Source: an uncultured delta proteobacterium
Lineage (GTDB): Bacteria > Desulfobacterota > Binatia > JACPRU01
Direction: 5' to 3'
DNA: 64,000 nucleotides
Assembly (NCBI GenBank): GCA_963745025.1
Contig: CAVUWD010000016.1
Span: 1,077,507-1,141,506 of the forward strand
Shown: positions 5,860-49,103 of the stretch, piece after piece
Layout of the letters: every line of letters starts with the position of its first letter
Numbering within the stretch: the first letter of the stretch is position 1
Notes under the pieces: generated by a model
Databases searched by the model: none
Told to the model about the DNA's origin: nothing
What the model saw: only the letters and a program-made list of their open reading frames with translations
Translations under genes and position numbers: made by a program

Positions 5860-6177
5860 GTGGTCGTGGTTCACACGCATGACCCATCGGGTAACCCCCG
5901 CACGAGGCGCACATGGATCGCCTACAATGAGGGTTTCGCGTGGATCGAGGCCGCCAACCCGGACCGCGAGTTCTATCGCGACATCGTGGCCAACCCGGAG
6001 ATCGAGGTCGGACGCCACGGCGAGTTGCGCCGCTACCATGCGGTGCCGCTCGCCAACCCCGACGGACACCAGATCATCCGCCGGCTGCTCGCCGAGAAGT
6101 ACGGCTTAGCCGACTGCTGGATCGGCCTGATCGCCAACACCTCGCGTTCGGTCGCCATCCGCCTGGAGCCGCGCTGA
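5860..6177 (+). pseudogene. N-truncated deazaflavin-dependent nitroreductase-like (split-barrel) protein
   Basis: VVVHT...RTWI...WIEAANPDREFYRDIVANPEIEV...LAEKYGLAD; no clear start or RBS; 3' end duplicated at 35,510-35,620. Confidence 0.5.
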
Positions 6178-6197
6178 ACGGCGCCGCTTCGTGCGCC

Positions 6198-6241
6198 CCG
6201 TCAAAGCGGGCAGAGATGGGGAAGTGCCGACGTCCGAGATC
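6198..6241 (-). repeat. Dispersed repeat copy C (CCGTCAAAGCGGGC...AGTGCCGACGTCCGAGATC on + strand)
   Basis: Reverse complement aligns with 61,032-61,074 and with the 70-bp repeats at 34,287 and 35,441. Confidence 0.8.
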
Positions 6242-6274
6242 GACCGTTATGTAGCGTTCCGGCCCTTGTTGCCG

Positions 6275-13753: not shown

Positions 13754-13900
13754 ACGCGCAATGCATCTCGACCGTGTCCCGCAAGTCAGTCGGTCCTGCG
13801 TCGCTAGCCAGTTTCGCTGCTCGTGCGATCCTTCAGCATCGAGTACAAGATCCGACAGAGCCACGCGCCATAGGAACCCACACGGGAGGAGGGCCTTCAG

Positions 13901-14692: not shown

Positions 14693-14729
14693 CGTAAGCA
14701 TCGTTCGCCCCGATCGACCTGGCCTTCCG

Positions 14730-14813
14730 CCTACTCCGACCCCGGAGCCGAGCGAGCTCAGTCTCGGACTGGCCGCGCTCGCGACGCTCGCCCGGCGGTC
14801 GTGCGCGCGGAGA
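14730..14813 (+). pseudogene. Orphan PEP-CTERM-like sorting-signal shard
   Basis: PTPTPEPSELSLGLAALATLARRSCARR: PEP, hydrophobic helix, Arg cluster; no upstream body. Confidence 0.5.
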
Positions 14814-14856
14814 TCCCAGGCCGCGACGCAAGCCCCTACACGGAAGTCGGCGTGGC

Positions 14857-15894: not shown

Positions 15895-16018
15895 CGATCG
15901 CGTGCCCCTTGCGTAGCCTTACGCCAACTCGGCCGCTTGTGCCGCCTATCCGCGTCCGTAGATGGCACTAGGCTCGCTGAGGTTTCAGGTGTCAAGGAAT
16001 CTGGGGTGCCGGCAACCG

Positions 16019-16153
16019 AAGTCCGCCCACGAAGGCGAACGCAAGCAGGTGACGATGCTCTTCGCCGACGTGAAGGGCTCGATGGAGCTGGCCGAGTAGC
16101 TCGACGCCGAGGAGTGGCACAAGATCCTCGACCGCTTCTTCGAGATCTTGACC
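16019..16153 (+). pseudogene. Adenylate/guanylate cyclase shard 1 (internal TAG)
   Basis: EGERKQVTMLFADVKGSMELAE*LDAEEWHKILDRFFEILT. Confidence 0.8.
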
Positions 16154-16156
16154 GTG

Positions 16157-16343
16157 CGATCGCCGGCAGCCAGGTCGATGGTCAGACGAGCAGCCGGGTT
16201 CGTGCCGCTTGCGTCGGACGGGTGCACGCTGCGATACGCCTCGATGAACTGCTGGAGCCCGTCGATGTTGGGGTCGGTGTTCTCCTCGTAGTCGATCTCG
16301 ATGCCGACGCCCAGCTCCGTCGCCACGGCGGCGGCCTTCAGGC
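16157..16343 (-). pseudogene. Shard of a GH18/chitinase-like TIM-barrel protein
   Basis: LGVGIEIDYEE...LQQFIEAYRS...ARLTIDLAAGDR resembles the DxxDxDxE region of GH18-like proteins. Confidence 0.4.
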
Positions 16344-16373
16344 CGAGGTCGCGGCCGCCGAGGGCGATTTCGG

Positions 16374-17225
16374 TTGTGCGGCCCCACCGGCTCTGACACA
16401 GGTCGCGCCGTGCCGCTGCTGCGCTTCTTCTCTGGTTTTCGGCTACCGCTCGACGCCGTGGGACTTCTGCGGCACGAGTCCAGGGTCCGCGTCGCGGCGA
16501 TCGTCCCTCTGCTCGTCTCGGCGGCGGCGCTCGCCATCGGAGTCGCCGTCGTGGTCGCGTGGGCGGGAGAGCTGTACGCGCTCGCGACCGGCTGGCTGCC
16601 CTGGCCCGAAGCTGCGGCGTGGTACGCATGGATCTGGATCGGGCCGCTTCGGGTCCTTCTTTTCGTCATCGGGCTCGCCGCCTTCGGCGCGCTGGCGGGC
16701 GGCGTCATCGTCGTCGCGTTCCTTCTCGGCGGCGTCGTCGCTGCGCCGTTTCTCGATCGGCTGTCGCGGCGGGTCGAGGAGACGCTCACCGCTTCGGTGA
16801 TCGACACGGCGAGGCCGGGCGTCGCCGGCTTCTTCGCCGACGCGGCGCGCGTGATTCTGGAGGAGGTGAAACGGCTCGGCTTCTTCCTCGGCGTGCAGGG
16901 TCTCGTCGTGATTCCCGGCGCGCTCGTTCCGGGGGCTCAGCCGGCAGCCGCAGCGGCCATGGTGGCGCTGACGATCCTCTTTCTCGCCCTCGACTCGGCG
17001 AGCTACGCGCTCGACCGCCGGGGGCTTGGCTTCGGCGAGAAGCTGCGGTGGAGCCGCGAGCATTTTCCGGCCGTCGCGGGCTACGGCGCGGCGGCATTTC
17101 TCGTCTGCTCCATTCCCCTCGTCAACCTGATCGCGCTGCCGCTGCTCGTTGCGGCGGGAACGCTGCTCGTCGCCGAGGTGGAGCGACGCCACAACGCGGG
17201 CGATGAACGAGCGCGCAAGTCGTAG
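16374..17225 (+). CDS. EI24/CysZ-like membrane protein (start uncertain)
   Basis: VVAAPFLDRLSRRVE, LALDSASYALDRR, SIPLVNLIALPLLVAAGTLL. Confidence 0.75.
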   Translation: MCGPTGSDTGRAVPLLRFFSGFRLPLDAVGLLRHESRVRVAAIVPLLVSAAALAIGVAVVVAWAGELYALATGWLPWPEAAAWYAWIWIGPLRVLLFVIGLAAFGALAGGVIVVAFLLGGVVAAPFLDRLSRRVEETLTASVIDTARPGVAGFFADAARVILEEVKRLGFFLGVQGLVVIPGALVPGAQPAAAAAMVALTILFLALDSASYALDRRGLGFGEKLRWSREHFPAVAGYGAAAFLVCSIPLVNLIALPLLVAAGTLLVAEVERRHNAGDERARKS

Positions 17226-17398
17226 CGCCCGAAGAGAGCATGCCGACGTCTCGAACCCGTCCGATCCCGGCTCGTTGCTGAGACCGCGAGGCCGTCGGGC
17301 GGTCCCCCCAAATCAGCCTTCGTATACGCCGTCACAACCGGTGCACGCGGCTGTCGTTCGAGCCCCGCCGCCTGCGATCAGTGTGGGTTCGAACACGG

Positions 17399-17809
17399 CT
17401 ATCGGCGAGTGCCCGCGCGCGGCGTGAAGACCTCGTCCAGGCTCCACTTGACCCCGCCGCGACAGGCAATGACGAGGAAAACGAAGGAGTAGAGAGCGGC
17501 CAACTCGCCTTTGTTCAGAGCCGGGAAGAACTCGGGTCCCATCTGTAGCTTCCAGTGGAATTGGAAATACGCCACCGCCATCATCCCGCTGCAGAGAAAA
17601 GCCGCCGCGCGGGTCTGGAACCCCAGCATCACCGGCAACCCTCCCAGGAGCTCGATGATCCCGCCGAACCAAAGTTGGGACCCCACGGGCGGCTGGAACT
17701 CGGAAAGCACCCCGAGGATCTTCTGAATCCCGTGGAACGAGAACATGAATCCGGCCGCCATTCGCATCAAGGCAAAGGAGTGATCGGTCCACTTTTCGAG
17801 CCATGTCAT
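17399..17809 (-). CDS. DoxX family membrane protein
   Basis: MRMAAGFMFSFHGIQK, IELLGG, TRAAAFLCSGMMAVAYF, GELAALYSFVFL...G..WSLD. Confidence 0.9.
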   Translation of the reverse strand: MTWLEKWTDHSFALMRMAAGFMFSFHGIQKILGVLSEFQPPVGSQLWFGGIIELLGGLPVMLGFQTRAAAFLCSGMMAVAYFQFHWKLQMGPEFFPALNKGELAALYSFVFLVIACRGGVKWSLDEVFTPRAGTRR

Positions 17810-18113
17810 CAGAGCACTCTCCGGTTCGGAGATCCTCCTTCGGTCACGATGATCTCGCCGACGAGCTAGAAGGCTCGCGGGTCACAGTCAAGGCGCCTCA
17901 CGATATTGTTGATGTTCCCCACTACCGCCATCCGAGCCGACATCTGCAAGCGAACGCTCGATTGCGATACTGCCGATACCTAGGGCGTCGAAGCGCGCTG
18001 ACGTCGCCGGCAACGGCATCTCGGTCACGGCGGACCACGGCACGATCGTCCACCGAAAGCGACGGCGTCTTCGGCATGTCGAGCGGTCGGTCGCGACAGC
18101 GATTATGCTCACC

Positions 18114-18276
18114 GGTGATCGCCCTGACCGATGCGATGCTGGCGGTGGAGGAAGAAAACATGCGGCCGGTGACGTGGGTGGTCATCGAGGAGGTGCGCGG
18201 CGGTGATTGGGCCATCGGCGGCAAGCGGCTTCCGGCGCGCGACGTCAAGGCTCTCGCCGCCGGGCGCGCTGCGTAG
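18114..18276 (+). pseudogene. C-terminal shard of 4-oxalocrotonate tautomerase family protein
   Basis: LTDAMLAVEEENMRPVTWVVIEEVRGGDWAIGGKRL; N-terminal Pro region absent. Confidence 0.75.
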
Positions 18277-18551
18277 CGAGGCTGCATGCGGCGGTCGCCG
18301 AGCGCGCCGAGCGGTGTCCGCGTTGCGGTACCGCTCGGCCCTCCGCATGATAGATTTTCCTGGCCGGTCGGCGGATGTGGGTTTACCATCGAGCCGTTCG
18401 AATCGTTGAAGAAAATGACGACTTTCAAATCGAGCAGGACGATCACGCTCTACTTCGAGGCGCGCGACGCGCTGTTTCGAGAGCCGCGCGTCATGCGGAT
18501 CATCTGGAGGAGCAGGTCTTGTTACGCCGCTATCCATGAGGAGGCTTGAAC

Positions 18552-19853
18552 ATGGCAACCCAAAGTAACCCTTCTGACGCTGCGATTCGCAAACTTCTCG
18601 AGTTTCCGCTGCTGGAGGCCCTCTTCGGCCGCCGGGCGCGCCGCTTCGGGCTTGGAATGGAGGTCCCGTCCGGGCCTCTTGCCTTCAAATCCCGCTACGC
18701 GCCGATGCCGCTGTCGGAGCTCGAGCAGGCGGTGCTCATCGTCGCGGCGACGGGAGTAAGCGGTTGGCACTTCGGCATTCCCCATACCCCGAGCCGCCCG
18801 AACGAGCTCTCACACTACAGCGTGCGACTGGCGGGGCGCACCGTGCCGACCGGAGCGGGGATCGGGACCCCCGTGCTCTTCTACACCGACGACGACGGAA
18901 CCTATCTCGTGAACCTCCGCGACATTCGGCCGACCCGCCTGCGCGAGTACCAGGAGGCTGGCGACTTCGAGGGGATCCTTGCGGTCTGCCGGGACCACCG
19001 GACCAAGCTAGGGGAAAAGCGATTGGATATCCGTCGCGATCCACGGGACATCATGGAGCACAACCTTTGGGTTGCGAACCAGCCGGGTTCTACCCTGTTG
19101 ATCCCAGCGACCGATCTCAGCGAGTACTTGCTGGCGCTCCTCATGCTCCTCAGCTCCAACGGCTATTTTCTCTTCGATGACTACGCGAAGCGCCCGGCGG
19201 GGAATCTCGAGCCCTTTTTCCGCTTGGGTCTTCTCGATTCTCAGAAAGCCGTCCCGCTTTCCTTCCTGGAGCAGGCAACGCTCTCGTGGGCGTCGATGGA
19301 GCTCGGCTTCATGGCGCACAACGCGGTTCTCACAATGCAAGCGATGGGGCTCGGCGGCTGGTTCTTCACCGGGATGTACCCCTGGAGCATTCTCGGCGGA
19401 TATCGGGACGAAGGAGTGGAAGGGCTCGGCTTCCGTTTCGTGCGGGACGAGCGCTGGACGCTGCCGAACCCGGTAGGGCTCGACGGGCACTACGAAGGGC
19501 TCTGTCCGCCCTACCAGCGGGACATGCGCTCGGCTGTCGAGGCGCTCGTGACGAAGAAGTTCGGTCCCGGCGGTACCTACGATCCGGCCACGGGCGGCGC
19601 CTACAAGCGGACCGCCGAGGTGAAAGCCAGCGTCAGCCGGTACAGCCGCGAGCTCGTCGAGTCGCTCGGCGAGATGGCGCAGTACGTATACGACGCCTAT
19701 GGGAAGTTCCCCGCAACGATCCCGACGATCCTGGTTTCGGGATACGTCCAGGCGCAGCACATCGACCTCGAGTATTACGAAACCCACTTCAAACCCGGCG
19801 CAGTTTTGCCGACGCACACCGAACACATGGTTCGCTGGCACGGCGGAGCCTGA
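18552..19853 (+). CDS. Uncharacterised nitroreductase-fold-like protein
   Basis: 433 aa with GAGGAGG RBS; LLEALFGRRARRF N-terminus and ELGFMAHN..L..QAMGLGGW motif. Confidence 0.7.
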   Translation: MATQSNPSDAAIRKLLEFPLLEALFGRRARRFGLGMEVPSGPLAFKSRYAPMPLSELEQAVLIVAATGVSGWHFGIPHTPSRPNELSHYSVRLAGRTVPTGAGIGTPVLFYTDDDGTYLVNLRDIRPTRLREYQEAGDFEGILAVCRDHRTKLGEKRLDIRRDPRDIMEHNLWVANQPGSTLLIPATDLSEYLLALLMLLSSNGYFLFDDYAKRPAGNLEPFFRLGLLDSQKAVPLSFLEQATLSWASMELGFMAHNAVLTMQAMGLGGWFFTGMYPWSILGGYRDEGVEGLGFRFVRDERWTLPNPVGLDGHYEGLCPPYQRDMRSAVEALVTKKFGPGGTYDPATGGAYKRTAEVKASVSRYSRELVESLGEMAQYVYDAYGKFPATIPTILVSGYVQAQHIDLEYYETHFKPGAVLPTHTEHMVRWHGGA

Positions 19854-20172
19854 GAGAGGCTGGGCCTGGCGTTCGCGCCGCTCAACGCAGAGGATGCTCA
19901 CCAAATTTCGAAACCGATTGTCTCATTCTCATTGACAGCCTCCGGAGGCGACACCCCAGCCTCCGCTCGGTGAACGCTGAGCTCGTGGGACACTACGAGG
20001 CTTTCTGGAAAGGCCACTGACGGGCGGTCGCCCCCACCGGTCGTGGTCTTCGCTGTTTACTTCACCATACGAATGCCTTCTTTCCGAGCCGGACCGGGCA
20101 ATGACTGCGGCGTTGAGGCACACGGGTGGTCCGGTCCGGGTCGCAAAGTGGGCGTAGGACGGAGGAGCTGAG

Positions 20173-35409: not shown

Positions 35410-35440
35410 GGCTGCCGTCATGATTCGTGGGGGATAGGCT

Positions 35441-35510
35441 GTACTAGCGCCCGAAGTTGGATCTCGGACACCGGCACTGCCGCTCTACCGCTCTACGCCC
35501 GCTTTGACGG
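35441..35510 (+). repeat. 70-bp dispersed repeat copy B
   Basis: Direct repeat of 34,287-34,356. Confidence 0.9.
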
Positions 35511-35618
35511 GGCGCACAAAGCGACGCCGTTCAGCGCGGCTCCAGGCGGATGGCGACCGAACGCGAGGTGTCGGCGATCAGGCCGATCCAGCAGTCGGCG
35601 AAGCCGTACTTCTCGGCA
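35511..35618 (-). pseudogene. Second copy of the 3' end of the gene at 5860-6177
   Basis: AEKYGFADCWIGLIADTSRSVAIRLEPR*, near-identical to ~6090-6197 in inverted orientation. Confidence 0.85.
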
Positions 35619-35734
35619 AGGGGATAGCGCCTTCAAAATCAGCAGCAACCTCCGGAGCTTGTTCGCGCAACTCTTACGGGAACGGTCCCCCGAAAACGAT
35701 CGTTCCGCTATTCTGAAAGGATGGTCCCTCGGTG

Positions 35735-38299: not shown

Positions 38300-38866
38300 C
38301 GCCCCAGTTGTGGCAACGACTCGGCCGCCTGTCGATCCCATCAGCTAGCTTCGCGGCGCGTGCTACCGGCCAGGAACAGCCAGATCGACACTGACCGAAA
38401 GAGGGGTCAGACAACTGTTCTGATCACCGTCGTCACCGCCCCTGCAACGTCGATGGTGTTCTGTCGCGCGCTCGCATCCGGCAGGGCACCATCCTGAGTG
38501 TGCAGCCGGGCGCTCGTCTACACCTTGTGGTCACGGCAGCGCCGATCGCAGGGGGCCCGCGTCATCGCATTCGGCGCACTCCTCGCCGTCGATCTCATGG
38601 TACAGGCGCGAATCGCGGTGCCCCCTGCGACCGTCTGACGCTGGGGCGAAGCTGCCACCCTTTCGCCACCACTTCTCTTAGAAAGGTCTACACCGCTCTG
38701 GCGGCAGCGGTGTTCGGGGACCCACAACAGACAAGGGTTTGGATGACTTTAGACGGGAGTGCCCCTGGCCTTTTGGCGATTGGCAATCCTGCGTCTTAGG
38801 GACCTTGCTCGGCCGCCTCTCCGCGAGCTCAAACTCGAGAACAGCCCCATTTCAGCCCCACGAAGG

Positions 38867-38897
38867 AAAAAAGGGGTTACCCTGCTACGGGTAACCC
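38867..38897 (-). terminator. Rho-independent terminator beyond the displaced tRNA 3' fragment
   Basis: GGGTTACCC-N6-GGGTAACCC stem followed by U6 on minus strand. Confidence 0.7.
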
Positions 38898-38904
38898 ATT
38901 GATT

Positions 38905-38959
38905 TCTCAGAGCGGGAGACGGGGATTGAACCCGCGACCTTCTCGTTGGCAACGAGACG
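38905..38959 (-). repeat. att site: 55-bp copy of the tRNA-Gly 3' end
   Basis: Identical to 48,789-48,843. Confidence 0.95.
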
Positions 38960-38966
38960 CACGGCG

Positions 38967-39254
38967 CTATGCGGGATGATCCGCGCAGACCGGAGTTTCT
39001 GCTCGCTCGGCTGCCGTGATCGACCCACCCGAGACACTCGAAACCCGGTCGAGCTTTGGGAGGTATCCGAGCTCGTTCAGCCTCCAGAGTGCGCCCACGT
39101 GGAAGAGTATGGCGCGGTAGCCTCCGCCGGACAGACAGAGCGCGATCCCCGAGTCGGGAGCCGCATAAGGATCGTCCGTCTCGATGAACGTGACGGGTTC
39201 GGTGAGACTCGGGCCGGTAGGTGTGCTCGTACCTCCTCTGGCGTCGAGGCTCAT
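38967..39254 (-). pseudogene. N-terminal shard of a patatin/cPLA2-like phospholipase
   Basis: GIALCLSGGGYRA.LFHVGALWRLNE (oxyanion motif) and SSVSGGS (nucleophile Ser); truncated next to att. Confidence 0.8.
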
Positions 39255-39724
39255 CTCTCCGCCTACGCGGCTCTAGCTGTCAATGTTTCGGCCCGGTACG
39301 ACAACCAGCACGCGCGAAAGCCCAGAACAGCACGGTGGACCTCGGCCCACTCTTGGAGCGCCGCTGCATCGGCCGTCTCGGTTGACACGACCCACGAGCG
39401 AAGGATCCGCCCGCCCCGAGCCATCACCGTGATCCTGGTGAGGCCATCCGGGCAAGGTCGCAAACGATAGATCTCAAGAGACCTCCCCGGCTGATTGTCC
39501 GCAGACATTCCACACGGTGGCGCGCGGCGAGCAGAAAAAAGGCAGCGCGGAACGGCTCGAAGCGCACTGTTCCACGATGGAAGCTCTTCTCAATCGTATG
39601 GCGGATTCGGTCTCTGCCCGGAGAGGCGCGGACGCTCGGGCGGAAGCACATTAACCGAAGCCAACAATGGCCTGGGTCTGGGCGACGAAAACCTCGACGA
39701 GCGCACCGTCAACGTCGGCTAACC

Positions 39725-42700
39725 TCAGCGCGATTCCAACATACGCTCTAGTTTATCGGCCTGTGCCACGTACCAGTGCATCGCAAACGTACGCAGCGCA
39801 GCCGTCGCCTGCGCGAGCACGCTGTGCGCGGCCTCCGCGTCGCCATCGCGGGCGAGTACCTCCGCGAGCTGGAGACGCGTCACCGCGGTCTCTCGCATCG
39901 CCCCTCGCACCTCGGCCAGCTTTACGCCGGTCTCGAGATGCGCGCGGGCTTCCGCCAGCTGCGGCTCCGGCCCTCGCATACGGGCAATGCCAAGGGCGCG
40001 GTGGGCCTGAATCTCCCCGATCCGGTCTCCCACCTCGGCGCGGGCGAGGGCGCGGTGCGCGACGGAGACGGCCTCGTCTACCCGCCCGCCGAAGGCAAGC
40101 GCCTCGGCGAGACAGCTGCACTTGACCGACAGCGAGAGCCCGCCGCTCTTCTCGAACGCCGTAACGGCCTCTCGTAGCCGATTGAGGCCCACCGGATCCC
40201 CACGCCCGCACACGAGTGCGTACCCTTCCGTCGTTCGGCTCATCGCATCTATGTAGGGCGCCTCGATGGCGTCCGCGATCGCACGCATCTCCTTGCTGCG
40301 GCGGATGCACGCATCCCATTCACCTTGGAAGAGATCGACCCACGCCACTATCGTCAGGATCGAGCCTTCAAGCTGGCGTTGGCGGAGCTCGCGGACGATC
40401 GCGAGGGCCTCGCCGACGCGGGTGCGCGCGGTCGCAAAATCGCCGCGCTCGGCATCGACGAGCGCGAGGTAACCCAGGGCGTTGGCGATGACGATGGTGC
40501 GGCCGCTGGAGCCACCCTCGCGCCGCAGGTGGATCGCCCGAGAGAGGTGATCGGTCGCGAGCCCGAACTCGGCCTCATGGTAGAAGCTCTGGCCGAGATT
40601 GGTGTGGAGCTGCGAGATCAGGCGGTGATCGGCGGCGGCCTGGGCGAGCTCTAGGGCGCGCTCGAAGTGCTGCACGGCGGTCCGGTGATTGCCGAAGGTG
40701 TGCTCGAACCAGCCCATCCAGTAGATGGCGCGCGCGGCACCCCTCAGATACCCGAGGCGCTCGGCGATCTCGTAGGACGCCCGCAGCACGTCTTGGCGCG
40801 CTTCCGCCGGCTGGTACACGGTCACGGCGGCCCACTTCGCGCTGAGGTCGACGCGCTGACGGAGCTGGTCGGGGTCGCTCGCGAGCCGATCGAGCAGCTC
40901 GATCGCCCGCCGATACTGCGTCCGCGCGGCACCCAGCGAAAACGACGCGGCGGCCTTGTCGCCGGCTCGTCCGGCGAACAGCGCCGCGCGCTCGAAGTCC
41001 TCGCCACGTTCGTAGTGCTCGGTGAGCACTTCATAGTGCTCTGAGAGGCGATCCGCTGAGGAGCCCGCCTCGATTGACTGGCCGACTCTCCGATGGAGAT
41101 CGCGCCGACGACGCCGCAGGATGCTCTCGTACGCCACATCGCGCGTGATCGCATGCTTGAAACGATAGGTCGCGTCGCTGCTCCCCGAGTCCGGCACCTC
41201 GCTCACGAGTTCCTGCGCCTCGAGCCGTGCGAGAATTGTCGCGACCGCGCGCTCGCTCTGCGCGGCCACGGTGGCGAGAACACGGAGCGCGAAGCGCTCG
41301 CCCAGCACGGAGGCGAGCCGCAAGAGTTCTCGCTCCGGCGCGTCCAGCCGGTCGATGCGTGCGCGAATTACCGCCTGGACCGTGGGAGGCACCTCGAGCG
41401 CGTCGAATGCGAGGTCAAGGCCCGTCGCGGAGGCTTTGTCGACAAGCGACCGGCAGATCTCTTCCAGGAAGAGAGGGTTGCCGCCGGTCCACCCATGGAG
41501 GCGACGCACGGTCTCGTCCGAGACCGCCCCGAGACGGGACACGATCACCACGCGGGACTCGGAGGCGTCGAGCGGCCGCAGGTGCAAGCGCCACGGGTGC
41601 GGGCCACGCCACGGGGGCTCGCCTTCGGGGCGGTAGGTGGTCACCACCATGAGCGCGTGATTGGCGACCGTTGCGGCGAGCTGCTCCAGCGCGGCGGTGG
41701 ACGACTCGTCAGCCCAGTGCCAGTCCTCGAGTAGAACGACGAGGGGCTGGCGACGTGCGACCGCCGTGCAGAGCGCCACTAGACTGCGTATCATGGCCTC
41801 GCGCAAGAGATCGTCCCGTAGCTGCGGAGGCAGCGGGTAGTCGTCGGTTTGGAGCGACAGCAGCTGGAGGTAGAGCGGGAGGTGCTCGGCGAGCGCTGCA
41901 TCGATCTCTCGAAGCGCCGCCGCCGCGCTGTTCCGCTGCACGCTCGGAGCATCAGTATCGCGTATATCGAGCAGCTCACGGAGCAAGCGCAGAAAGGGCT
42001 GGAACGGTGGGGGTATTGCGGTGGCATCGCAGGCCGTCAGCACTACGCGGACGTCGTCCGGTACACGCGCACGCGCTTCGAAGAGGAAGCGACTCTTGCC
42101 GACGCCCGGTTCCCCGACGACTGCGATCCAGCGTCCATGACCGAGTCGCGCGTTCTGCAGGCATTCGTCGAGTTCGGCGTGCTCGCGCTCACGACCGCAA
42201 TATGCGCCGACGGCCTGCTCACGCATGTCCTCGAACAAGCCGCGCGGAATCGACCCCAACACGCGAAAGGCTTTGACGGGACATTCCTTGCCCCGCAGGG
42301 GCACCGACCCCAATGGCTCCATCGCGAAGTACCGCACGATGGCGTGATGGGTTTCGCCGTCGACCAGGATCTCGTCTGCTTCGGCCACACCGACTAGCCG
42401 GGCCGCAGTGTTGATGGTGTCGCCCGTCACCCCGAAGAGCCCTTCGCGCTTGTCGCGCACCTGCGTGACGATCACGCCGGTGCAGATCGCCGTATGCAGG
42501 GCCAGCCGCCGTCTTCCGAGCCTATCGAGCTCTGTGTCGACCGTCCGCACCAACTGGTGCAGCTCGAGCGCCGCCGTCACAGCGCGACGCGGGTCATTGT
42601 CGTGCGCGACGGGTACGCCGAAGAGGGCCTTCACGTCGTCGCCGGAAAACTGGTTCACGGTCCCGCCGTGCGCCTCGATGATCTGAGTGGCGCCGGTGAA

Positions 42701-42913
42701 GATCCGGTTCATGACTCCGACGACGTCCTCAGGGTCGAGCTGCTCGGTGAGGCGCGAGTAGCCTGCCAGGTCCGCGAAAAGCACCGTCGCCACCCGTCGC
42801 TCGCCGAACGGCAGGTCCCTTCCGGTACTCATATCGTCGCTGGCCGGCTTTCCCGGATCACGGGCACGCCCGATTGCCGCGCCCTCCTGACTCTCCTCTT
42901 TCTCACCCTTCAT
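39725..42913 (-). CDS. Class III adenylate/guanylate cyclase - STAND AAA ATPase - TPR protein
   Basis: TVLFADLAGY, FSGDD, GDTINTAARL; GEPGVGKS Walker A; LLEDWHWAD Walker B; GGNPLF; helical repeat C-terminus. Confidence 0.92.
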   Translation of the reverse strand: MKGEKEESQEGAAIGRARDPGKPASDDMSTGRDLPFGERRVATVLFADLAGYSRLTEQLDPEDVVGVMNRIFTGATQIIEAHGGTVNQFSGDDVKALFGVPVAHDNDPRRAVTAALELHQLVRTVDTELDRLGRRRLALHTAICTGVIVTQVRDKREGLFGVTGDTINTAARLVGVAEADEILVDGETHHAIVRYFAMEPLGSVPLRGKECPVKAFRVLGSIPRGLFEDMREQAVGAYCGREREHAELDECLQNARLGHGRWIAVVGEPGVGKSRFLFEARARVPDDVRVVLTACDATAIPPPFQPFLRLLRELLDIRDTDAPSVQRNSAAAALREIDAALAEHLPLYLQLLSLQTDDYPLPPQLRDDLLREAMIRSLVALCTAVARRQPLVVLLEDWHWADESSTAALEQLAATVANHALMVVTTYRPEGEPPWRGPHPWRLHLRPLDASESRVVIVSRLGAVSDETVRRLHGWTGGNPLFLEEICRSLVDKASATGLDLAFDALEVPPTVQAVIRARIDRLDAPERELLRLASVLGERFALRVLATVAAQSERAVATILARLEAQELVSEVPDSGSSDATYRFKHAITRDVAYESILRRRRRDLHRRVGQSIEAGSSADRLSEHYEVLTEHYERGEDFERAALFAGRAGDKAAASFSLGAARTQYRRAIELLDRLASDPDQLRQRVDLSAKWAAVTVYQPAEARQDVLRASYEIAERLGYLRGAARAIYWMGWFEHTFGNHRTAVQHFERALELAQAAADHRLISQLHTNLGQSFYHEAEFGLATDHLSRAIHLRREGGSSGRTIVIANALGYLALVDAERGDFATARTRVGEALAIVRELRQRQLEGSILTIVAWVDLFQGEWDACIRRSKEMRAIADAIEAPYIDAMSRTTEGYALVCGRGDPVGLNRLREAVTAFEKSGGLSLSVKCSCLAEALAFGGRVDEAVSVAHRALARAEVGDRIGEIQAHRALGIARMRGPEPQLAEARAHLETGVKLAEVRGAMRETAVTRLQLAEVLARDGDAEAAHSVLAQATAALRTFAMHWYVAQADKLERMLESR

Positions 42914-44435
42914 GGCGAATGGTCGCGAGGTACGAGAGCGCGCTCTTCGACGGTAGAAAAAAGTACTCTCCGCCGCGAACGGTCACGAAACGACGCAATG
43001 GCACGTCGGCGTTGCCGAGCACCAGGGGGCCGGAGGTCGTTGGTACGATGAACTGCCCGCCAGCCCGGGTGCGCCCGAGAAGCGGGTCGACTTCGTCCCA
43101 GCGCCCGTTGACGAAGGTGGGATCGTTCAGCCACCGTTGCTGTACGACCTCGAATTGCTGCTCGATGTCGGCGTTGAGGCAGGCGAAGTAGAGCCCGCGC
43201 GTGCCGGCAGGATCCGGCGTAGCGCCCGCCTTTTCCAGCATCAATTTCGGGTCAGGCCATCCCAGCACCGGGTTGCCGTAAGGGCGACCGCGTCGCAGGA
43301 TGCGGTGGCGGCGGACTGCAGCCAGCGACCGCCGCTCGGCAAGCCGCGGTATCGTGTCGCGAGGGTTCGCGCGGCGGATGTGGGCGCCAAACGGACAGGC
43401 GAACCCGTCCGCATCCTCAGCGTCGCGGAAGGCGAAGTTGTTGCTTCTTTCATCGACCTTGAAGAAGCTCGTCGGTTCCTCACGGGCAAGCGTCAGCGGA
43501 GCGCCGTTCCGCCACCGCCCAACGATCTTCGCGGCACGGTGCTCCATCGTCAGGACGTCGCTGGCACTGTCGCGCGCGAACTGCCAGAAGGCGATTACGT
43601 CCTGGTCGATCTCGCGGAGCACCAGATAGGTGCCGCCACGGCCTAAGTCGCAACGGCCGCCGTCGGGGGCGAGTCGGAGGCCAGCGGTGCGTGCGGTCGG
43701 TGTGGCACGCACCGTCGGCCCGCAAACGATCTCCCCCGCCTCGTTCGGATAGCCGAGAAGGAGCTCGCCTGGTGCCAAGAGGTCGGAGGCATCGTCCTCT
43801 GCCTGCAGGCGAAACCACGGTTGTGAGATGCCGTCGACGAAGCCGAAGTGCTCCCTTAGCCCCTCGAACTGCGGCGCCTTCGGCCAGGCGGCTCGGAGCC
43901 GTACCACCTCGCGGATATTGCAGGCCGCGGCGCACTTCTGCGCGTCGGCCAGTGGCTTATCAAGCGCAGTGTCGTCGGCCCCGAACAGCATGAGCACGGC
44001 GTCCACATGCTTCGGGTCCTCTTTGGGGAACTCGGGGTCCAGCGACTTCGGACGCTGCACATTTCCCCACCGCCAATGATCCGGGGCACACTCCCCGACG
44101 TCGCCCAAGTCCCTCGAGCGGTGCGCCGACCCGCTCATTCCCTCTCGAAACGCGGGGCCGAACTCAGCGAGCGCACGCGACTCGAGCCCGCATGCGGCAA
44201 ACCCAGGATGCGAGAACGCAACGTTCACGGACGTGTACCGCTTCCCCTCCGCCCGTCCGAAGCTCACCTGTTTCGCGGTCTCCGCAAGCCAGGCACCCAA
44301 GCGGTCTTTTGCATCGTCGAGGCGCAAGAGGAGATAGCACGCCTCGGGAAGGTCCCCGTGGCCGCTGAGCGCAAGGGACTGTATCTCTGTCAGGTCGACA
44401 TTGTAGGCCGCGTCCGGCGGCGGTCGTCTCGTCAT
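42903..44435 (-). CDS. DyP-type (dye-decolorizing) heme peroxidase
   Basis: EHFGFVDGISQP (distal Asp), CPFGAHIRRANPRD (proximal His), HRILRRGRPYG (distal Arg), GGEYFFLPS. Confidence 0.92.
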   Translation of the reverse strand: MTRRPPPDAAYNVDLTEIQSLALSGHGDLPEACYLLLRLDDAKDRLGAWLAETAKQVSFGRAEGKRYTSVNVAFSHPGFAACGLESRALAEFGPAFREGMSGSAHRSRDLGDVGECAPDHWRWGNVQRPKSLDPEFPKEDPKHVDAVLMLFGADDTALDKPLADAQKCAAACNIREVVRLRAAWPKAPQFEGLREHFGFVDGISQPWFRLQAEDDASDLLAPGELLLGYPNEAGEIVCGPTVRATPTARTAGLRLAPDGGRCDLGRGGTYLVLREIDQDVIAFWQFARDSASDVLTMEHRAAKIVGRWRNGAPLTLAREEPTSFFKVDERSNNFAFRDAEDADGFACPFGAHIRRANPRDTIPRLAERRSLAAVRRHRILRRGRPYGNPVLGWPDPKLMLEKAGATPDPAGTRGLYFACLNADIEQQFEVVQQRWLNDPTFVNGRWDEVDPLLGRTRAGGQFIVPTTSGPLVLGNADVPLRRFVTVRGGEYFFLPSKSALSYLATIRHEG

Positions 44436-45985
44436 GGAGGCCGTCCCTCAAGCATGTCCAGCCACTCGTCCACCTCGCTCGGAGTCGGGTAGCCATTGAG
44501 CAGCTGATGGATGCGCCAGTTGTCGTTGATCCGCCGAGTGGTGAAGCGCCGCGTCGGGTATCCACAGTACCAGACGTCGGTCGCAATCTGATGCACCCGG
44601 GCCGCGTTCTGGAATTCTTCGAGATCGCGCGCTCCATTGCCGAGGAACGCGGTCGTTGGCGGGAATCCCTCTGTGTTGCCCCAGATGGCGTTCAATCCCG
44701 GCGCGGCGTTATCGGAGAAGTCAGCGAAGTAGTCGAGCGCCCGGCCATCGTAGTTGGACATGAAGAGCAAACGCCGCCCGCCGTCGACGAGCCGCCACTG
44801 CGCGAAATGGATCGTCTCCACGCCCATCAGCCGTCCCTCGACATTGCGCCGGGCACGGAAGCCCACGACCCACAAGACAAGGCGTAAGGTCAGCGCCCGC
44901 AGAACCCCGCCCTTCACGTCCGTGACGATCGTCAAGCGATTCATGCCAGGACGTTCGTTGTCGGCCTCCTTGAGGTAGTTGTCATAGTCTTTGAAGGTCT
45001 GTCTTGGCACCGGGACCCAACGGAGGGCCTCGCGAGGCTCGACCACGAAGACGAAGGCGACAGCCCACAGAGCCGCTAGTATCGCGGCAATACCGACGAG
45101 CGCGGCGATGTAGGCGCCCGCAAATCCGAGGATCGGCTTCGCGCCGAGGGGGATGCGGAGCCATACGGCAAGGCAGGCGCCGAACCCTAAGACGCCGACA
45201 GAGACGCCGATGGACAGCGTAGCTGCAACCTGCGATTCGACAATCGCGGAGACTAGGTCGATGAGGAGGCCCCGGGTCGCTGGCTGCGGCGGCGCCTGCG
45301 CCGCGAATGCTGCGAGGTCCGGCGCCTCCTCCTTCAGCGTATCTTTCACGAAGAGCCGCGCCCGTAGAAACAGGTGAGGGTTCGGAAGGTCCTCGAGCCT
45401 TTTCGCGGCAGCCTGCTTCTGCTCGCGTACAAAGCCGGCGAGCCGCCGTGCAAGGAGTTCCTGCAGCTCGATCGCCTTTACCGAACGGTTGGGCGTACCC
45501 ATGTATTCCGCTACGGGGCCTCGTGCCACGTGACTTTCGAGGAAGCTTCGCACCGCGTTTGAGTCGCCGCTTCTGGGATAGGCGGGGCAGTGTGACCCGT
45601 AAATCCGGTCGAGCACATCACGCGCGTTTGTCACAAGCCGGTCGAGGTGCTGCTCGCGCGAACCGTCGAACACGGTGTACATCACGAGCGACGGCGAGAC
45701 CGCGAGCCCGCGACGTCGCACCCGGTCTGGTAGCACCACCCAGCGCGCGACGTGAAGGCCCTCGACCCGGGTAAGGGATGTCTGCCTACTCCGCACCTCC
45801 TTGTCTGTGGTCGCGAGGACCAATCGCAGCGGTTCGACGGCGCTCTCCTCAAGGGGTACGACCACGACGAGACTCGCGATGACGCTCCGCTCAGGCGAGC
45901 TCGCAGTAGCGAAGGAAGAGGACCGCCCCGTGGGGCGGTGTGCTTCGTCAAGCGCCGACTCGCGCCTCGCAGTCTCGGGCGACAT
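44432..45985 (-). CDS. DyP-associated membrane protein with two homologous soluble domains around two TM helices
   Basis: GLHVARWVV...VFDG and TIHFAQW...LLFMSNYDG repeats; GAGGAG RBS; ATGA overlap with DyP. Confidence 0.8.
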   Translation of the reverse strand: MSPETARRESALDEAHRPTGRSSSFATASSPERSVIASLVVVVPLEESAVEPLRLVLATTDKEVRSRQTSLTRVEGLHVARWVVLPDRVRRRGLAVSPSLVMYTVFDGSREQHLDRLVTNARDVLDRIYGSHCPAYPRSGDSNAVRSFLESHVARGPVAEYMGTPNRSVKAIELQELLARRLAGFVREQKQAAAKRLEDLPNPHLFLRARLFVKDTLKEEAPDLAAFAAQAPPQPATRGLLIDLVSAIVESQVAATLSIGVSVGVLGFGACLAVWLRIPLGAKPILGFAGAYIAALVGIAAILAALWAVAFVFVVEPREALRWVPVPRQTFKDYDNYLKEADNERPGMNRLTIVTDVKGGVLRALTLRLVLWVVGFRARRNVEGRLMGVETIHFAQWRLVDGGRRLLFMSNYDGRALDYFADFSDNAAPGLNAIWGNTEGFPPTTAFLGNGARDLEEFQNAARVHQIATDVWYCGYPTRRFTTRRINDNWRIHQLLNGYPTPSEVDEWLDMLEGRPP

Positions 45986-45993
45986 CGTGCTCC

Positions 45994-47367
45994 TCAATCA
46001 AAAACGAGCTGGAAGCTCGTCGGCCATCGACTTTTCACCCTTCGCAGGGTGCCGGCCAGACCCGGCGCCCGCCGGACGTTCCGGAGTGAGAACACGGCGG
46101 CGACCATCTCGGTCATGAGGATGGTGGCGATCGGGCGTTGCGGCGTCGCCGCGACGCACTGATGCTGACCCGTGCCGAATACGAGGTACTGACTCGCCGG
46201 GCGGCCTGCGAGAAAGGTGCCCGGATGAGGGGCAAGTCTCGGATCGAAGGCCACGGCGAGCGTGACCGCAATGACGGTCGCGTTCGCCGGAACAGCCACC
46301 CGTCGCCCGCTCCCGGCCTCGAGCACGACACCGTCAGGGCAGTGTCGGATCAGACCCGGCGGAAAGGGCGAGAAGCGCGCAGCCTCCAGCACGTGCCGCT
46401 CAAGGAGGTTGTCGACGGGAGCCCCCGCGTCTCGCTGCCGGTGGTGCTCGAGCGCCAACGTACGGACGGTGTCGAGGTCGCGCGCCGAAAGGTCGAACAG
46501 GCGATCCATGACGTCGAGGTACTGCGAGGTCGTCGGTACGAGGAGGCCCAAGATGGTTCCGCCCAACACCGTACAGAGCTCGTCGTCGGTCCAACGCGCC
46601 GCGTCGGTCTTGACGAGCCGATCGACCACCGTGTCCCCGCTCGCCTGGCCAGCCGCCTCGCGTTTCTCGCGGATCACCTGGAGCAGGTGTTCTCGGATCT
46701 GCTGCCCAGCGTCCTCCGCGTCTGCCTTGAGGTGGCCCGTCAACAGCTCGACGTTGAAGATGTAGGAGGCCGTTCGCTGGCAGAGGCCCAGCAAGGTGGC
46801 ACCCGCGCGGCCGGCAGACTCGATCTCGCGAACGCCGAAGTAGTCCTCGGTGAAACGAGAGATCGCAATCTGGGCCACGGACACGAGATCGACGGATCCG
46901 CCTCCGTCATTGGCGCGAGGCGAGGAGGGATGCTGGACGCCGAAGGTCGCCGCCTCCCGCGCGAGAGCTCGAATCTGGTCGCAATCGTCCGGCCGCAGAA
47001 CGCCGCGTAGTAGTTCGCTCTGCCGCGCGTACTCCTGCGAGTCGAAATCGAGGCCGAGGAGAAAGGGCCCGAACGTCTCGCGCATTTTCTTTTCGTAGAG
47101 GTAGACCCTGAACTTCTCGTAGTCGGCGAGGACGCGACAGACTCCCTTGGCGTCGAAGACGAGAACGAGCGGCGGCAGATCGCGGCGGGTTAAAACCCCC
47201 TTCTCCCTCTCGACGAACGCCCGCAGAGCACTCTGGAGCCATTGCGGGACGACCCAGACCGGGATGAGCACCCGGAGCACCGCGAAGCCCCAGCAGGTCA
47301 GCGTGCGTACAGCGCGACGAACAAGGCGCCTCACCGAAAGCTCCTTCTCCGACTCTGAGCGGAGCAA
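45994..47367 (-). CDS. Atypical cytochrome P450 (start uncertain)
   Basis: EAAR ExxR motif, FGTGQHQCVA heme-Cys loop; I-helix GTILGLLVPTT lacks A/G-G-x-D/E-T. Confidence 0.85.
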   Translation of the reverse strand: MLRSESEKELSVRRLVRRAVRTLTCWGFAVLRVLIPVWVVPQWLQSALRAFVEREKGVLTRRDLPPLVLVFDAKGVCRVLADYEKFRVYLYEKKMRETFGPFLLGLDFDSQEYARQSELLRGVLRPDDCDQIRALAREAATFGVQHPSSPRANDGGGSVDLVSVAQIAISRFTEDYFGVREIESAGRAGATLLGLCQRTASYIFNVELLTGHLKADAEDAGQQIREHLLQVIREKREAAGQASGDTVVDRLVKTDAARWTDDELCTVLGGTILGLLVPTTSQYLDVMDRLFDLSARDLDTVRTLALEHHRQRDAGAPVDNLLERHVLEAARFSPFPPGLIRHCPDGVVLEAGSGRRVAVPANATVIAVTLAVAFDPRLAPHPGTFLAGRPASQYLVFGTGQHQCVAATPQRPIATILMTEMVAAVFSLRNVRRAPGLAGTLRRVKSRWPTSFQLVFD

Positions 47368-47811
47368 ATCCGGATCGTGGCGACAGCGGATTCTTTATAA
47401 CACTCTGGATCCTGGAGCAAGGCGGGAGACTGTCGAGGCTGCCGAAAAGATCACTGGATACTTCCCCGGTGCGGATCGGCGCACCCGAGCCGATACCACG
47501 CGGACCGCGCAAGGCCGGATGCCCGTCAGGGAGTTCGGGCGTGGGCGCCGATGCCACGCTCGGTCGTGAACGAGCGCAAGCCGGCACCCTTTTGCGCTGC
47601 CCGAGGCCAAGCAGCACGAATCCCGCAAGACGTAGGCCGCGGAGGTTCTCTCCATCCAGTCGGTCCGCTGCCTGCGCGAAGCTACCCGCAGGACTGTGAT
47701 CCGGGTCAAGCCGTCCGGGCCGGCCCCAAGCGGGCTGAAGCAAAGTTCTTCACGCCGCGGCGGGGGAGGGGGACGCTCGCCGAGCGACTCCGATCCCGTG
47801 GCTACCGGCGG

Positions 47812-48340
47812 CTACGCTTGGAGCAGCTCCGATGAGAACAAGGCGCTCGTCCGGAAGGTGCGGCGGCGGTCACGCGTGGATTGCACGATCGTGTCGCGGT
47901 TCTCGTGGCGCTGGTACTGCGCGGCGATTCGCCTAACCGATTCCTCTTCCATCGCCTGAAGCAGTTCGTCCTCCGACTGACCGGGCTTCTGCACGGCCGC
48001 GAAGATGCCGCGCGCGCCCGAGTCGCCATGCTGGTTAGCGAGATCGAGCATGAACGCGACGCTCCGCTCGCTCCAAACCGCTCGGCGTAGCTCCGTACCT
48101 TCTCGAGCGAGGCACCGAAGGCGCGAAGCGCCTCTTGCACCTGCGCGCGCTGGAACGACGGATCGAGCGCGGCCCGTTGAAGCGCGCAATCCAGTCGTCG
48201 GCGGTGAGGTCGAAGCGCAGATCTGTTGTGTGGCCCTGGGCATCGACGCCCCCGTGTGCCCTCGCCACGTGGGCGAGAACCCCTTGCGCGAGCGCCTCGT
48301 CCTTGGCGGCGAAGATCTCCGCGTGTTCGTCGTCAGAGTA
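47812..48340 (-). pseudogene. Multiply frameshifted hypothetical gene (possibly lysozyme-like/peptidoglycan-associated C-terminus)
   Basis: Protein-like segments across frames: DWIARF, FQRAQVQEALRAF, SERSVAFMLDLANQHGDSGA. Confidence 0.35.
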
Positions 48341-48752
48341 ATCGAGACCACGAGACCCGTTTCGTACGAGACACTTTCCAGCCGGTTGGTTTTCCTATGC
48401 GGCTCGTCGATTCATCCGTTTCCGTCGTTTGAGGGTCGCCTGCTTGAGTCGAAGTACCAGCTGCGCTGCAACTTGTTTCGGTCGCGCATTCTCGGGATGC
48501 CGGCGAAGCTGGCCGGGCTACTCGTCGGGGTCGACAACGCGAACGTGATCAAGGACAGGATCGAGATCGAAGCACTCCAGGCTGTCAGGAGCTGTGCTCC
48601 AGTTGTTCCGATCCTAGAGGCACCAGTCTCGTGGCATTCGTTCCAGTAAGTCCATGGATGAGGGAGCATTTTCGGCGCTTCTGCCCGCCGATACCGAATC
48701 TGTCTTGCCGGCATCGTCCAATGAATCTTGCCCTTTCTTGCCCGTGAAGCGC

Positions 48753-48785
48753 CGCGAGGCTAGCCGATTAACGGCTAACCTCGCG
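48753..48785 (-). terminator. Inverted repeat just downstream of the intact tRNA
   Basis: CGCGAGGCTAGCCG-ATTAA-CGGCTAACCTCGCG (13/14 paired). Confidence 0.5.
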
Positions 48786-48794
48786 AAATCTCAG

Positions 48795-48866
48795 AGCGGG
48801 AGACGGGGATTGAACCCGCGACCTTCTCGTTGGCAACGAGACGTTCTACCGCTGAACTACTCCCGC
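48795..48866 (-). tRNA. tRNA-Gly (GCC), CCA not encoded
   Basis: GCGGGAGTAGTTCAGCGGTAGAACGTCTCGTTGCCAACGAGAAGGTCGCGGGTTCAATCCCCGTCTCCCGCT; acceptor GCGGGAG/CTCCCGC. Confidence 0.97.
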
Positions 48867-49103
48867 GTATTCGTTCTTACACGAATTATACTACAGCTCC
48901 ACTCAGAATTTCCTCGACCTCCCGTTCCATCTCCCAGCGCGATTCGGCCCTATTTGCCACCTGGCAGAGCGGTTCGCAACCCCAGCTCCCGGCCACCGAG
49001 ACGGCGACGTCGGTGGCAGTGGGAGCACTCGGTCGGCAACGAGGCGTTCTGCCGCTGACTACGATGGCGGACAGCACCGCGGGGTCGCTTGTCGAAGAAC
49101 TCC

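Follow-up and report, generated by a model that had tools for sequence, protein, structure and literature searches.

Genes of the operon

A stretch of 64,000 nucleotides of contig CAVUWD010000016.1 (assembly GCA_963745025.1, positions 1,077,507 to 1,141,506), from an uncultured delta proteobacterium of the Desulfobacterota and referred to below as the window, contains an operon of four co-oriented open reading frames (ORFs) on the minus strand at 39725-47367. These encode, in this order, a cytochrome P450, a membrane protein predicted to have the ABM fold, a DyP-type peroxidase and a cyclase-STAND protein. An earlier inspection of the letters alone, called here the sequence-only reading, proposed that the four genes make up a mobile module, and the analysis supports their description as a conserved, horizontally mobile module.

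The first ORF (45994-47367) encodes a divergent cytochrome P450 (P0001) of 446 amino acids (aa) if the database start at 47334 is used. The second (44432-45997, with an ATG start at 45985) was assigned by a structure model and a structure search to a putative tandem ABM-fold membrane protein (P0002). The third (42903-44435) encodes a class V (C/D) DyP-type heme peroxidase (P0003), recognized by Pfam, NCBIfam and residue alignment, and the fourth (39725-42913) a protein in which Pfam and NCBIfam identified a class III cyclase, an AAA_16 STAND NTPase and TPR repeats (P0004).

At the junction of the P450 and ABM genes 8 nt separate the stop codon TGA from the ATG, and a GAGGAG motif spans the stop codon. 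The ABM and DyP ORFs share 4 bp (ATGA, 44432-44435), and the DyP and cyclase ORFs share 11 bp (42903-42913). The P450, ABM protein and DyP are encoded in the window by three separate ORFs with stop codons in between; the three enzyme genes are translationally coupled, and the same holds for the cyclase gene with respect to the DyP gene. The linkage of the four genes, the gap with its GAGGAG motif and both overlaps had been described in the sequence-only reading, and all match the sequence. The lack of a ferredoxin or reductase, also claimed there, was borne out, as the scanned ORFs of the island gave no such domain. A promoter scan gave no sigma-70-like site in 38300-49000; weak terminator-like hairpins are present at 39694-39712 (minus strand), in the segment past the cyclase gene.

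Occurrence of the genes in other bacteria

A first scan of metagenome contigs with a single protein gave one locus only, L002, on a contig of a metagenome-assembled genome of the Myxococcota, in which all four genes are found in the same order with 43, 50, 50 and 61% identity. The genomes G023 and G004 also contain all four genes, in other orders and orientations, and the STAND protein of G004 carries the cyclase at its C-terminus. Since the four genes recur in these three places, their linkage is beyond chance.

A scan of metagenome contigs with an alignment of the ABM family yielded 80 loci that were kept. In 70 of them the ABM gene has a DyP gene immediately behind it; in the remaining ten the contig breaks off within about 455 bp, in nine cases within about 110 bp. 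The ABM family is near-obligately paired with DyP. Thirteen of the 80 loci contain the P450, and in five of these 13 (L035, L038, L047, L061 and L083) P450, ABM protein and DyP form one ORF of 1390-1432 aa. Further fusions were found among database proteins, extending from P450 to DyP (P0204, P0205, P0210 and P0211), joining ABM and DyP (P0083, P0131 and P0139) or joining P450 and ABM (P0128). The gene order P450, ABM, DyP of the window is identical with the domain order of the five triple fusions and of the four database proteins that extend from P450 to DyP.

The tRNA-Gly island

The operon is part of an island of about 9.9 kb, bounded by a tRNA-Gly gene and an exact 55-nt repeat of the 3' part of that tRNA. 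The tRNA-Gly(GCC) at 48794-48866 (minus strand; ARAGORN; Rfam tRNA, 71.2 bits) is the integration target on the attL side and the sole tRNA that ARAGORN found in the window. A repeat search located the tRNA-proximal copy of the direct repeat, which runs from the anticodon stem to the tRNA 3' end plus 5 nt, at 48789-48843, and the distal copy, a displaced remnant of the tRNA 3' part on the attR side, at 38905-38959; Rfam reported a partial tRNA at 38919-38972 with 31.2 bits. The exact recurrence of the tRNA-Gly 3' part at the distal site places the four genes in an insert of about 9.9 kb in the tRNA. A terminator-like hairpin with a T-run directly past the remnant (38874-38897, minus strand; hairpin scan) is probably the original terminator of the tRNA-Gly gene.

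The two edge segments of the island (38960-39724 and 47368-48788) are without a recognisable intact gene, the latter as judged by Pfam and PHROGs, and neither gave relics of an integrase or phage (Pfam, E<=0.1; PHROGs, E<=0.01). In the distal segment, a gene-less part (39273-39724) separates the cyclase gene from an N-terminal fragment of a patatin-like phospholipase (38967-39272, minus strand; Pfam Patatin, 35.1 bits, profile positions 1-42 of 191), in which the GGG and the G-x-S-x-G region are retained. The reading frame of the fragment is cut about 8 nt short of the att repeat, which indicates that the distal end of the island was deleted. The genes outside the island (ABC-F, MsrB, CDP-alcohol phosphatidyltransferase, NadB, GalK, PurF and PurL) are intact. 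The region is a genomic island inserted at tRNA-Gly, with observed boundaries, that has lost its integrase and part of the patatin and has kept the four-gene operon intact. The island proposed in the sequence-only reading was confirmed and sharpened by the tRNA and its repeat, and the patatin shard reported there, downstream on the same strand, is real. The decay ascribed there to the neighbouring sequence holds for the island edges, but not for the DNA outside, where the flanking housekeeping genes are intact. A possible ORF of 214 aa in the tRNA-proximal edge (48005-48649, plus strand) has a coding-like GC content by codon position (0.65/0.52/0.71) and gave no Pfam or PHROGs match.

Members of the ABM family were detected in one of 401 sampled genomes of the phylum, that one being the genome of the window (G000), and in three of 61 relatives, G000 included. 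A DNA search of eight relatives for an empty site showed only the right flank and the tRNA to be conserved, and a genome of the same genus was too diverged for comparing the integration site. Contigs from four DNA runs were short, with joint sides of less than 30 letters, and showed neither bridging nor an island-free form.

The encoded proteins

The P450 scored 19.1 bits against Pfam PF00067, below the cut-off of 22.8 bits, which is passed by its relatives in L014 and by the fused forms. Its Cys-ligand loop (FxxGxxxCxG) reads FGTGQHQCVA, and all 18 family members compared have Cys404 and the ExxR motif (E328, R331). The AF2 model (predicted local distance difference test, pLDDT, 86.2) has the P450 fold and matched at least 500 P450 chains of the PDB at E<=1e-3; the highest TM-scores were 0.65-0.68. 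The acid-alcohol (D/E-T) pair of the I-helix serves O2 activation with a redox partner; in P0001 the acid is replaced by Pro (LLVPTTS) and the Thr is retained. This Pro is common to the clade of the window and the fused clade, and the canonical DTT was found in the P450s of L018, L023, L030, L078 and L087. Pfam reported no redox-partner domain on the fused P450-ABM-DyP proteins. A weak NCBIfam match of P0001 was to a P450 of peptides made on ribosomes and modified after translation (RiPP). A CYP74- or CYP152-like identity was considered and dropped, neither family being among the fold matches listed. The P450 of L053 (8305-10341, plus strand; 678 aa in total) has an N-terminal GST_C_2 domain.

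The ABM protein has no Pfam or NCBIfam family, and a protein atlas returned only clusters of 'hypothetical protein'. Its model (pLDDT 84.8) consists of two ferredoxin-like halves (36-162 and 348-474) with a long two-helix hydrophobic hairpin between them. A Foldseek comparison with the PDB gave nothing at E<=1e-3, and in a wide structure search (VIA) the model matched WhiE-ORFI (9lmn_B; Z 14.6, root-mean-square deviation 4.1 over 224 residues), the decarboxylase Abx(+)O (9ltx_A; Z 10.8) and the tandem ABM protein 3f44_A (Z 9.8). P0002 is, on the evidence of this model, a tandem ABM-type (dimeric alpha+beta barrel) fold with a membrane hairpin. A profile of 23 close relatives collected 3733 representatives at E<=1e-3, which shows that the wider family is large. 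Profile-profile comparison detected no remote homology between the ABM and DyP families. Prediction of a complex of the ABM protein (33-517) with the DyP (10-510) gave a score of 0.00 in two runs, for which no controls were folded, and thus speaks neither for nor against a complex. In other proteins an ABM-like domain is fused to an Exo_endo_phos domain (P0178), and ABM and DyP together to a weak catalase-like stretch (P0209, 16.5 bits).

Such structural matches suggest that the module might serve the tailoring or oxidative coupling of an aromatic or peptide-derived metabolite, for example a pigment, quinone or cross-linked product, with radical coupling by the DyP and the STAND protein as pathway-specific regulator, a role which STANDs of the MalT or LAL type have. 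WhiE-ORFI and Abx(+)O are polyketide enzymes, the top fold matches of the P450 include the coupling enzymes CYP134A1, NzeB, DmlH and AryC, and the weak NCBIfam matches to the RiPP P450 and, for P0004, to TOMM_kin_cyc would fit as well. Such a role is nevertheless quite improbable. No polyketide synthase, nonribosomal peptide synthetase, cyclodipeptide synthase or precursor peptide was seen in the island of the window or among the neighbouring genes that were scanned, the fold matches are of a generic kind (8-20% sequence identity), and the alpha-dioxygenase partners in sister clusters, described below, point to fatty acids.

The peroxidase contains the domains DyP_N and Dyp_perox_C and matched TIGR01413 with 98 bits. 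Its best solved relatives are DrDyP (8re3, 5e-39), of class C/D according to the part of PMC10820274 available to us, and an ancestral D-type enzyme (7anv, 2e-36), followed by DyP2 (4g2c, 3e-29) and AnaPX (5c2i). The catalytic Asp of the GxxDG motif (D201), the proximal His (H352) and the distal Arg (R381/R382) align to DrDyP 8re3 and are invariant in 20 of 20 sequences. Judged by its residues, P0003 is a catalytically complete class V (C/D) DyP. In a quick maximum likelihood tree of 58 DyP domains the enzyme of the window pairs with that of L002 (support 100) and groups with the fused forms. The accessible text of PMC8395514 and PMC10820274 describes the physiological substrates and roles of bacterial class V DyPs as not established.

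Pfam assigned to P0004 a Guanylate_cyc domain (56 bits; cut-off 21.9), AAA_16 (77.4 bits) and TPR_12 (56.1 bits), and the P-loop GEPGVGKS is visible in its translation. In alignment A4, D18 and D62, which we take to be the metal-binding Asp residues, are invariant, and the GDxxNxAAR motif is retained as GDTINTAAR, its Asn and Arg presumably being the transition-state residues. Gln and Gly presumably occupy the two substrate-specifying positions, and a replacement of Lys by Gln is a feature also of Rv0386. The score of 272 bits against NCBIfam TIGR03903 (TOMM_kin_cyc), with a cut-off of 706, excludes P0004 from that family. In PADLOC the protein matched PycC models only, with up to 48 bits; no PADLOC family matched the P450, ABM protein, DyP or patatin fragment, and no effector model was matched.

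Association with cyclic nucleotide signalling

For the P450-bearing loci, which number 17 (the 13 metagenomic ones, L002, G004, G023 and the window), and for the 67 P450-less loci, the genes for a cyclase, STAND, kinase-STAND or Crp-type protein within about 1.3 kb were counted. Such a signalling gene is adjacent in 11 of the 17 P450-bearing loci and in one of the 67 P450-less ones, the single case among the latter being a weak kinase match 2.8 kb away. When only loci flanked by 3 kb or more are counted, the figures are 11 of 16 and 1 of 37, respectively. The sequence-only reading had held that P450/DyP clusters unlinked to STAND cyclases elsewhere would speak against it; this comparison was run, and linkage was found.

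In all five triple fusions a cyclase-TPR gene lies about 100 bp upstream, and in four of them a gene of the Crp family, whose product binds cyclic nucleotide monophosphates (cNMP), follows just downstream; the fifth contig ends first. These regulators (cNMP_binding and HTH_Crp_2 domains; Pfam) were located at L035:11933-12667, L061:12041-12724, L047:5082-5846 and L083 ~5937-6515, all on the minus strand, and are convergent on the 3' end of the fusion gene, with the cyclase-TPR gene upstream. G000 contains only distant cNMP-binding homologues of the Crp protein of the fused lineage (25-34% identity). In L018 a Ser/Thr kinase-AAA_16 STAND gene (28-3621, plus strand) is placed directly upstream of P450, ABM and DyP, as the counterpart of the cyclase-STAND gene of the window. 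The cNMP association is seen repeatedly, in fused as well as unfused lineages and with different gene orders, and a functional coupling of the enzymes to cNMP is well supported by this context.

The presence of a STAND NTPase, a class III cyclase with PycC matches and a patatin fragment on a mobile island also recalls the logic of CBASS and Pycsar. In an anti-phage island of that kind the STAND protein would sense infection, the cyclase would make a cNMP alarm, the now truncated patatin would have been the effector and the heme enzymes would be accessory or unrelated. Some related loci, namely L053 and L023, lie near AbiE or SIR2-like genes. We regard this explanation as very improbable. The PycC matches score below the general Pfam cyclase model (48 against 56 bits) and cover the shared fold only, the other three proteins and the patatin fragment have no PADLOC family, and no cNMP-binding domain was seen on the patatin found in G023, nor a known sensor domain on the truncated one. 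Moreover, the cyclase tracks P450, ABM and DyP in rearranged loci and pairs with Crp in the fused lineage, which argues for a regulator and not for abortive infection. The option of defence raised in the sequence-only reading is left unsupported, as the only PADLOC matches are those of the generic cyclase domain.

Lipid-related neighbours and sister clusters

The ORFs of 83 loci were clustered, and the ABM-DyP pairs that lack a P450 proved to be part of a more extensive conserved cluster. This includes, in 22 of the 80 metagenomic loci, a gene of the An_peroxidase family with a score of 359-363 bits against Pfam PF03098; the P450 is missing from all 22. The product is homologous over its full length to rice fatty-acid alpha-oxidase (1.5e-114) and to Arabidopsis alpha-DOX (1.9e-109). 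In the L052 enzyme the YRMH stretch is kept, and an Arg aligns with the distal His of the plant alpha-dioxygenases. This family of enzymes makes 2-hydroperoxy fatty acids. The occurrence of the alpha-dioxygenase in 22 loci without P450 indicates that the ABM-DyP core is joined by either an alpha-dioxygenase or a P450 without a redox partner. In the DyP tree the alpha-dioxygenase-linked rows are on one side of a branch with a Shimodaira-Hasegawa-like approximate likelihood ratio (SH-aLRT) support of 93; the partner labels need one change each, a number as low as which was reached in none of 500 shuffles. A search for co-occurring heme dioxygenases, suggested by the sequence-only reading, was positive in these sister clusters.

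Examples of the P450-less cluster are L052:3192-11559 and L079:6522-13645, and others occur in L050, L057 and L069. Its further parts are a protein of about 150 aa encoded upstream of the ABM gene (36 loci), one of about 133 aa (16 loci) and one of about 400 aa without a Pfam or PDB match (21 loci); the window contains none of these extras. In five loci (L067:5300-7198, L070:12809-14656, L055, L074 and L075) a GMC-family flavin oxidoreductase gene stands beside the ABM-DyP pair; many members of that family make H2O2.

In G023 a full-length patatin is encoded beside the module, next to the DyP gene. Patatin matches number seven in the whole genome of G000 and nine in that of G023. Abhydrolase_10 genes were found near the module in G023 and G004; their products and a protein of about 400 aa designated 'o406' gave no PDB sequence match. 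Neighbours that handle lipids, among them the patatin fragment of the window, lend the lipid reading some weight.

It may be asked whether the enzymes merely detoxify peroxides. In such a peroxide-stress module P450, ABM protein and DyP would scavenge H2O2 or organic peroxides at the inner membrane face, the cyclase-STAND protein would be a stress sensor acting through cNMP and Crp, and no signalling lipid would be involved. DyPs and P450s both react with H2O2, and scavenging is also raised in the accessible text of PMC9719856. The order of cyclase-TPR, enzyme gene and Crp in the fused lineage resembles a plain regulatory circuit, and the island retains no intact enzyme that would supply a substrate. 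Scavenging leaves unexplained, however, the obligate ABM-fold partner, the second heme enzyme, which is either the P450 or the alpha-dioxygenase homologue, the two not having been met together in any locus seen, and the patatin and hydrolase neighbours. We consider it unlikely.

Proposed function

The linkage, the fusions and the catalytic residues support a single membrane-tethered heme unit of three proteins. It is proposed that P450, ABM protein and DyP would form this unit at the membrane. The N-termini show no evident signal peptide, and in the model the hairpin puts the two ABM halves on the same side of the membrane; we infer a location on the cytoplasmic face. The unit would make or convert a hydrophobic hydroperoxide, most likely derived from a fatty acid; the P450 would take the place held by the fatty-acid alpha-dioxygenase homologue in the sister clusters, the DyP would consume the peroxide, and the ABM domain would bind the lipid or hand it over at the membrane. 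The cyclase-STAND-TPR protein would couple this chemistry to a cyclic nucleotide. Its STAND/TPR part may sense an upstream cue, in which case the ligand-bound form would switch on the synthesis of a cNMP controlling, and inducing, the enzymes via Crp-type regulators; alternatively, it may sense and report the product of the enzymes.

A membrane-tethered heme-enzyme unit acting on fatty-acid-derived peroxides, wired to cNMP signalling and carried on a tRNA-Gly island, is the reading that we prefer, and we give it about an even chance. A fatty-acid-derived peroxide is, at roughly equal chances for and against, the best-supported candidate for the substrate. It is tempting to speculate further that soil bacteria possess a widespread and hitherto undescribed membrane oxylipin pathway, in which the obligate ABM/DyP pair is combined with a third heme enzyme as the source of the fatty-acid hydroperoxide, either an alpha-dioxygenase or a reductase-independent P450, the P450 lineage having added a circuit from a cyclase-STAND or cyclase-TPR sensor through cNMP to Crp. 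A lipid peroxide signal would in this way be turned into a cyclic nucleotide signal, which would make the pathway the bacterial equivalent of oxylipin signalling in eukaryotes, and the module would pass from genome to genome on small islands that target tRNAs, the present one being an example; this wider proposal is tentative and somewhat doubtful.

Several observations weigh against the preferred reading. A search with silent controls gave no member of the An_peroxidase family (PF03098) in the window, G000, G023 or G004, and the island contains no fatty-acid dioxygenase, lipoxygenase or intact lipase. As regards patatin, the co-occurrence suggested by the sequence-only reading stood in so far as a full-length gene is present in G023, but this patatin and the fragment of the window are not detectably alike; a tblastn search with the G023 patatin gave no patatin in the 80 metagenomic loci, and Pfam gave none among 63 scanned ORFs of nine P450-bearing loci. 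The structures nearest to the P450 are those of ordinary bacterial and plant P450s such as CYP134A1, CYP97C1, NzeB and CYP105P1 (E~1e-10), and CYP74, CYP152 and Ppo-type enzymes are not among the fold matches listed. For the peroxide chemistry that the sequence-only reading ascribed to the heme enzymes this gives no support, the P450 fold having no special likeness to hydroperoxide-converting P450s. The polyketide enzymes that are the top structural matches of the ABM protein would fit aromatic substrates as well as lipids. In the cyclase Gln and Gly presumably stand where Lys and Asp would be expected for ATP, and the pair is not of the Glu/Cys type for GTP either. No signalling gene was seen in six of the 17 P450-bearing loci, of which some have short flanks, and the counts overstate independence because the loci are kin. 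Finally, the GC content of the island (0.659) equals that of its flanks (0.651 and 0.654), so that composition shows no sign of foreign origin.

Comparison with known systems

The P450-TM-DyP fusion has been published as the DyP subclass V4, with a P450 domain, some transmembrane (TM) regions and a DyP domain (PMC9719856, Biochem Biophys Rep 2022), and in the part of that article available to us its authors propose either H2O2 scavenging or a Ppo-like two-step reaction. As far as this text goes, V4 has the same three parts in the same N-to-C order as the genes of the window, and both contain class V DyPs. Unlike in the V4 fusion, the parts in the window are three separate, translationally coupled genes. 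To our knowledge, no biochemistry exists for the V4 fusion or for the separate-gene form. The 'TM region' is, according to the model of P0002, a tandem ABM-fold domain that constitutes a family of its own and is paired with DyP even in the absence of the P450. The link to cyclase, STAND and Crp and the alpha-dioxygenase sister clusters are not mentioned in the accessible part of PMC9719856.

Of the enzymes that resemble the proposed unit, fungal PpoA/LDS is a heme dioxygenase fused to a P450, which acts in two steps via a fatty-acid hydroperoxide and without a reductase, and the products of which signal. The likeness consists in two joined heme enzymes and a reductase-free P450; PpoA/LDS is cited also in the available part of PMC9719856. 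The first enzyme of PpoA/LDS is an An_peroxidase, a family of which no member was found in the window, and homology is confined to the P450 superfamily; in addition, PpoA/LDS is devoid of a DyP, an ABM-fold membrane domain and a cyclase. Plant and cyanobacterial alpha-dioxygenases (PDB 4kvj and 4hhr; PMC8720084, as far as accessible) have their homologues (E 1e-109 to 1e-114) beside ABM-DyP in the 22 loci mentioned. The alpha-dioxygenase holds in these sister loci the place of the P450 in the lineage of the window, and it was not found in the window or, as searched, in G000.

The order of class III cyclase, AAA_16 and TPR in P0004 is that of the Rv0386/TOMM_kin_cyc type. MalT-like STANDs act as ligand-gated NTPase switches, and P0004 would be expected to work in the same manner. 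P0004 differs from the TOMM_kin_cyc and MalT types in having neither a kinase nor a helix-turn-helix (HTH) domain and in the translational coupling of its gene to that of DyP. WhiE-ORFI, Abx(+)O and 3f44 appear to share with P0002 the pseudo-dimer of two ferredoxin-like halves seen in its model. P0002 differs from ABM/SchA-CurD-like enzymes in lacking a sequence-family match, in the membrane hairpin of about 80 residues between its halves, and in being paired with or fused to DyP.

Already known are cyclase-ATPase-TPR proteins and, as a subclass defined in silico, the P450-TM-DyP architecture. Our literature searches gave no report of the ABM partner, of its near-obligate pairing with DyP or of the cyclase/Crp circuit, nor of the alternation of alpha-dioxygenase and P450 or of carriage on a tRNA-Gly island. 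The statement of the sequence-only reading that no system of this composition had been described is thus valid only in part, since the P450-TM-DyP fusion and the Ppo-like idea are in print for V4 in the accessible text of PMC9719856, while no report of the ABM protein, cyclase or Crp was found.

The gene contexts make the open question of the natural role of class V DyPs testable. If the lipid reading is true, the module would represent a new oxylipin route in bacteria and would provide cyclic nucleotide signalling with a new input. Should it prove wrong, a new enzyme complex is still defined by the conserved unit of three proteins and by its natural fusions.

Other observations

An unannotated protein of about 440 aa is encoded near the module at L002:15707-17023, L015 ~2918-4033 and L014 ~18492-19466. 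It is kept in three of the four loci of the cyclase-STAND type, is not present in the window and has no Pfam or PDB match. The contig L061 encodes, about 1.5 kb from the fused module (13506-19973, minus strand), a protein of 2155 aa with SpvB, TcdB-middle, FG-GAP, RHS-repeat and Peptidase_M91 domains, which is probably an unrelated neighbour. In the window itself, a short repeated element is present at ~35429-35620, upstream of the MsrB gene, and at ~6088-6241; this element has matches of 79-100% at numerous places in G000 and in G001, a genome of the same genus.

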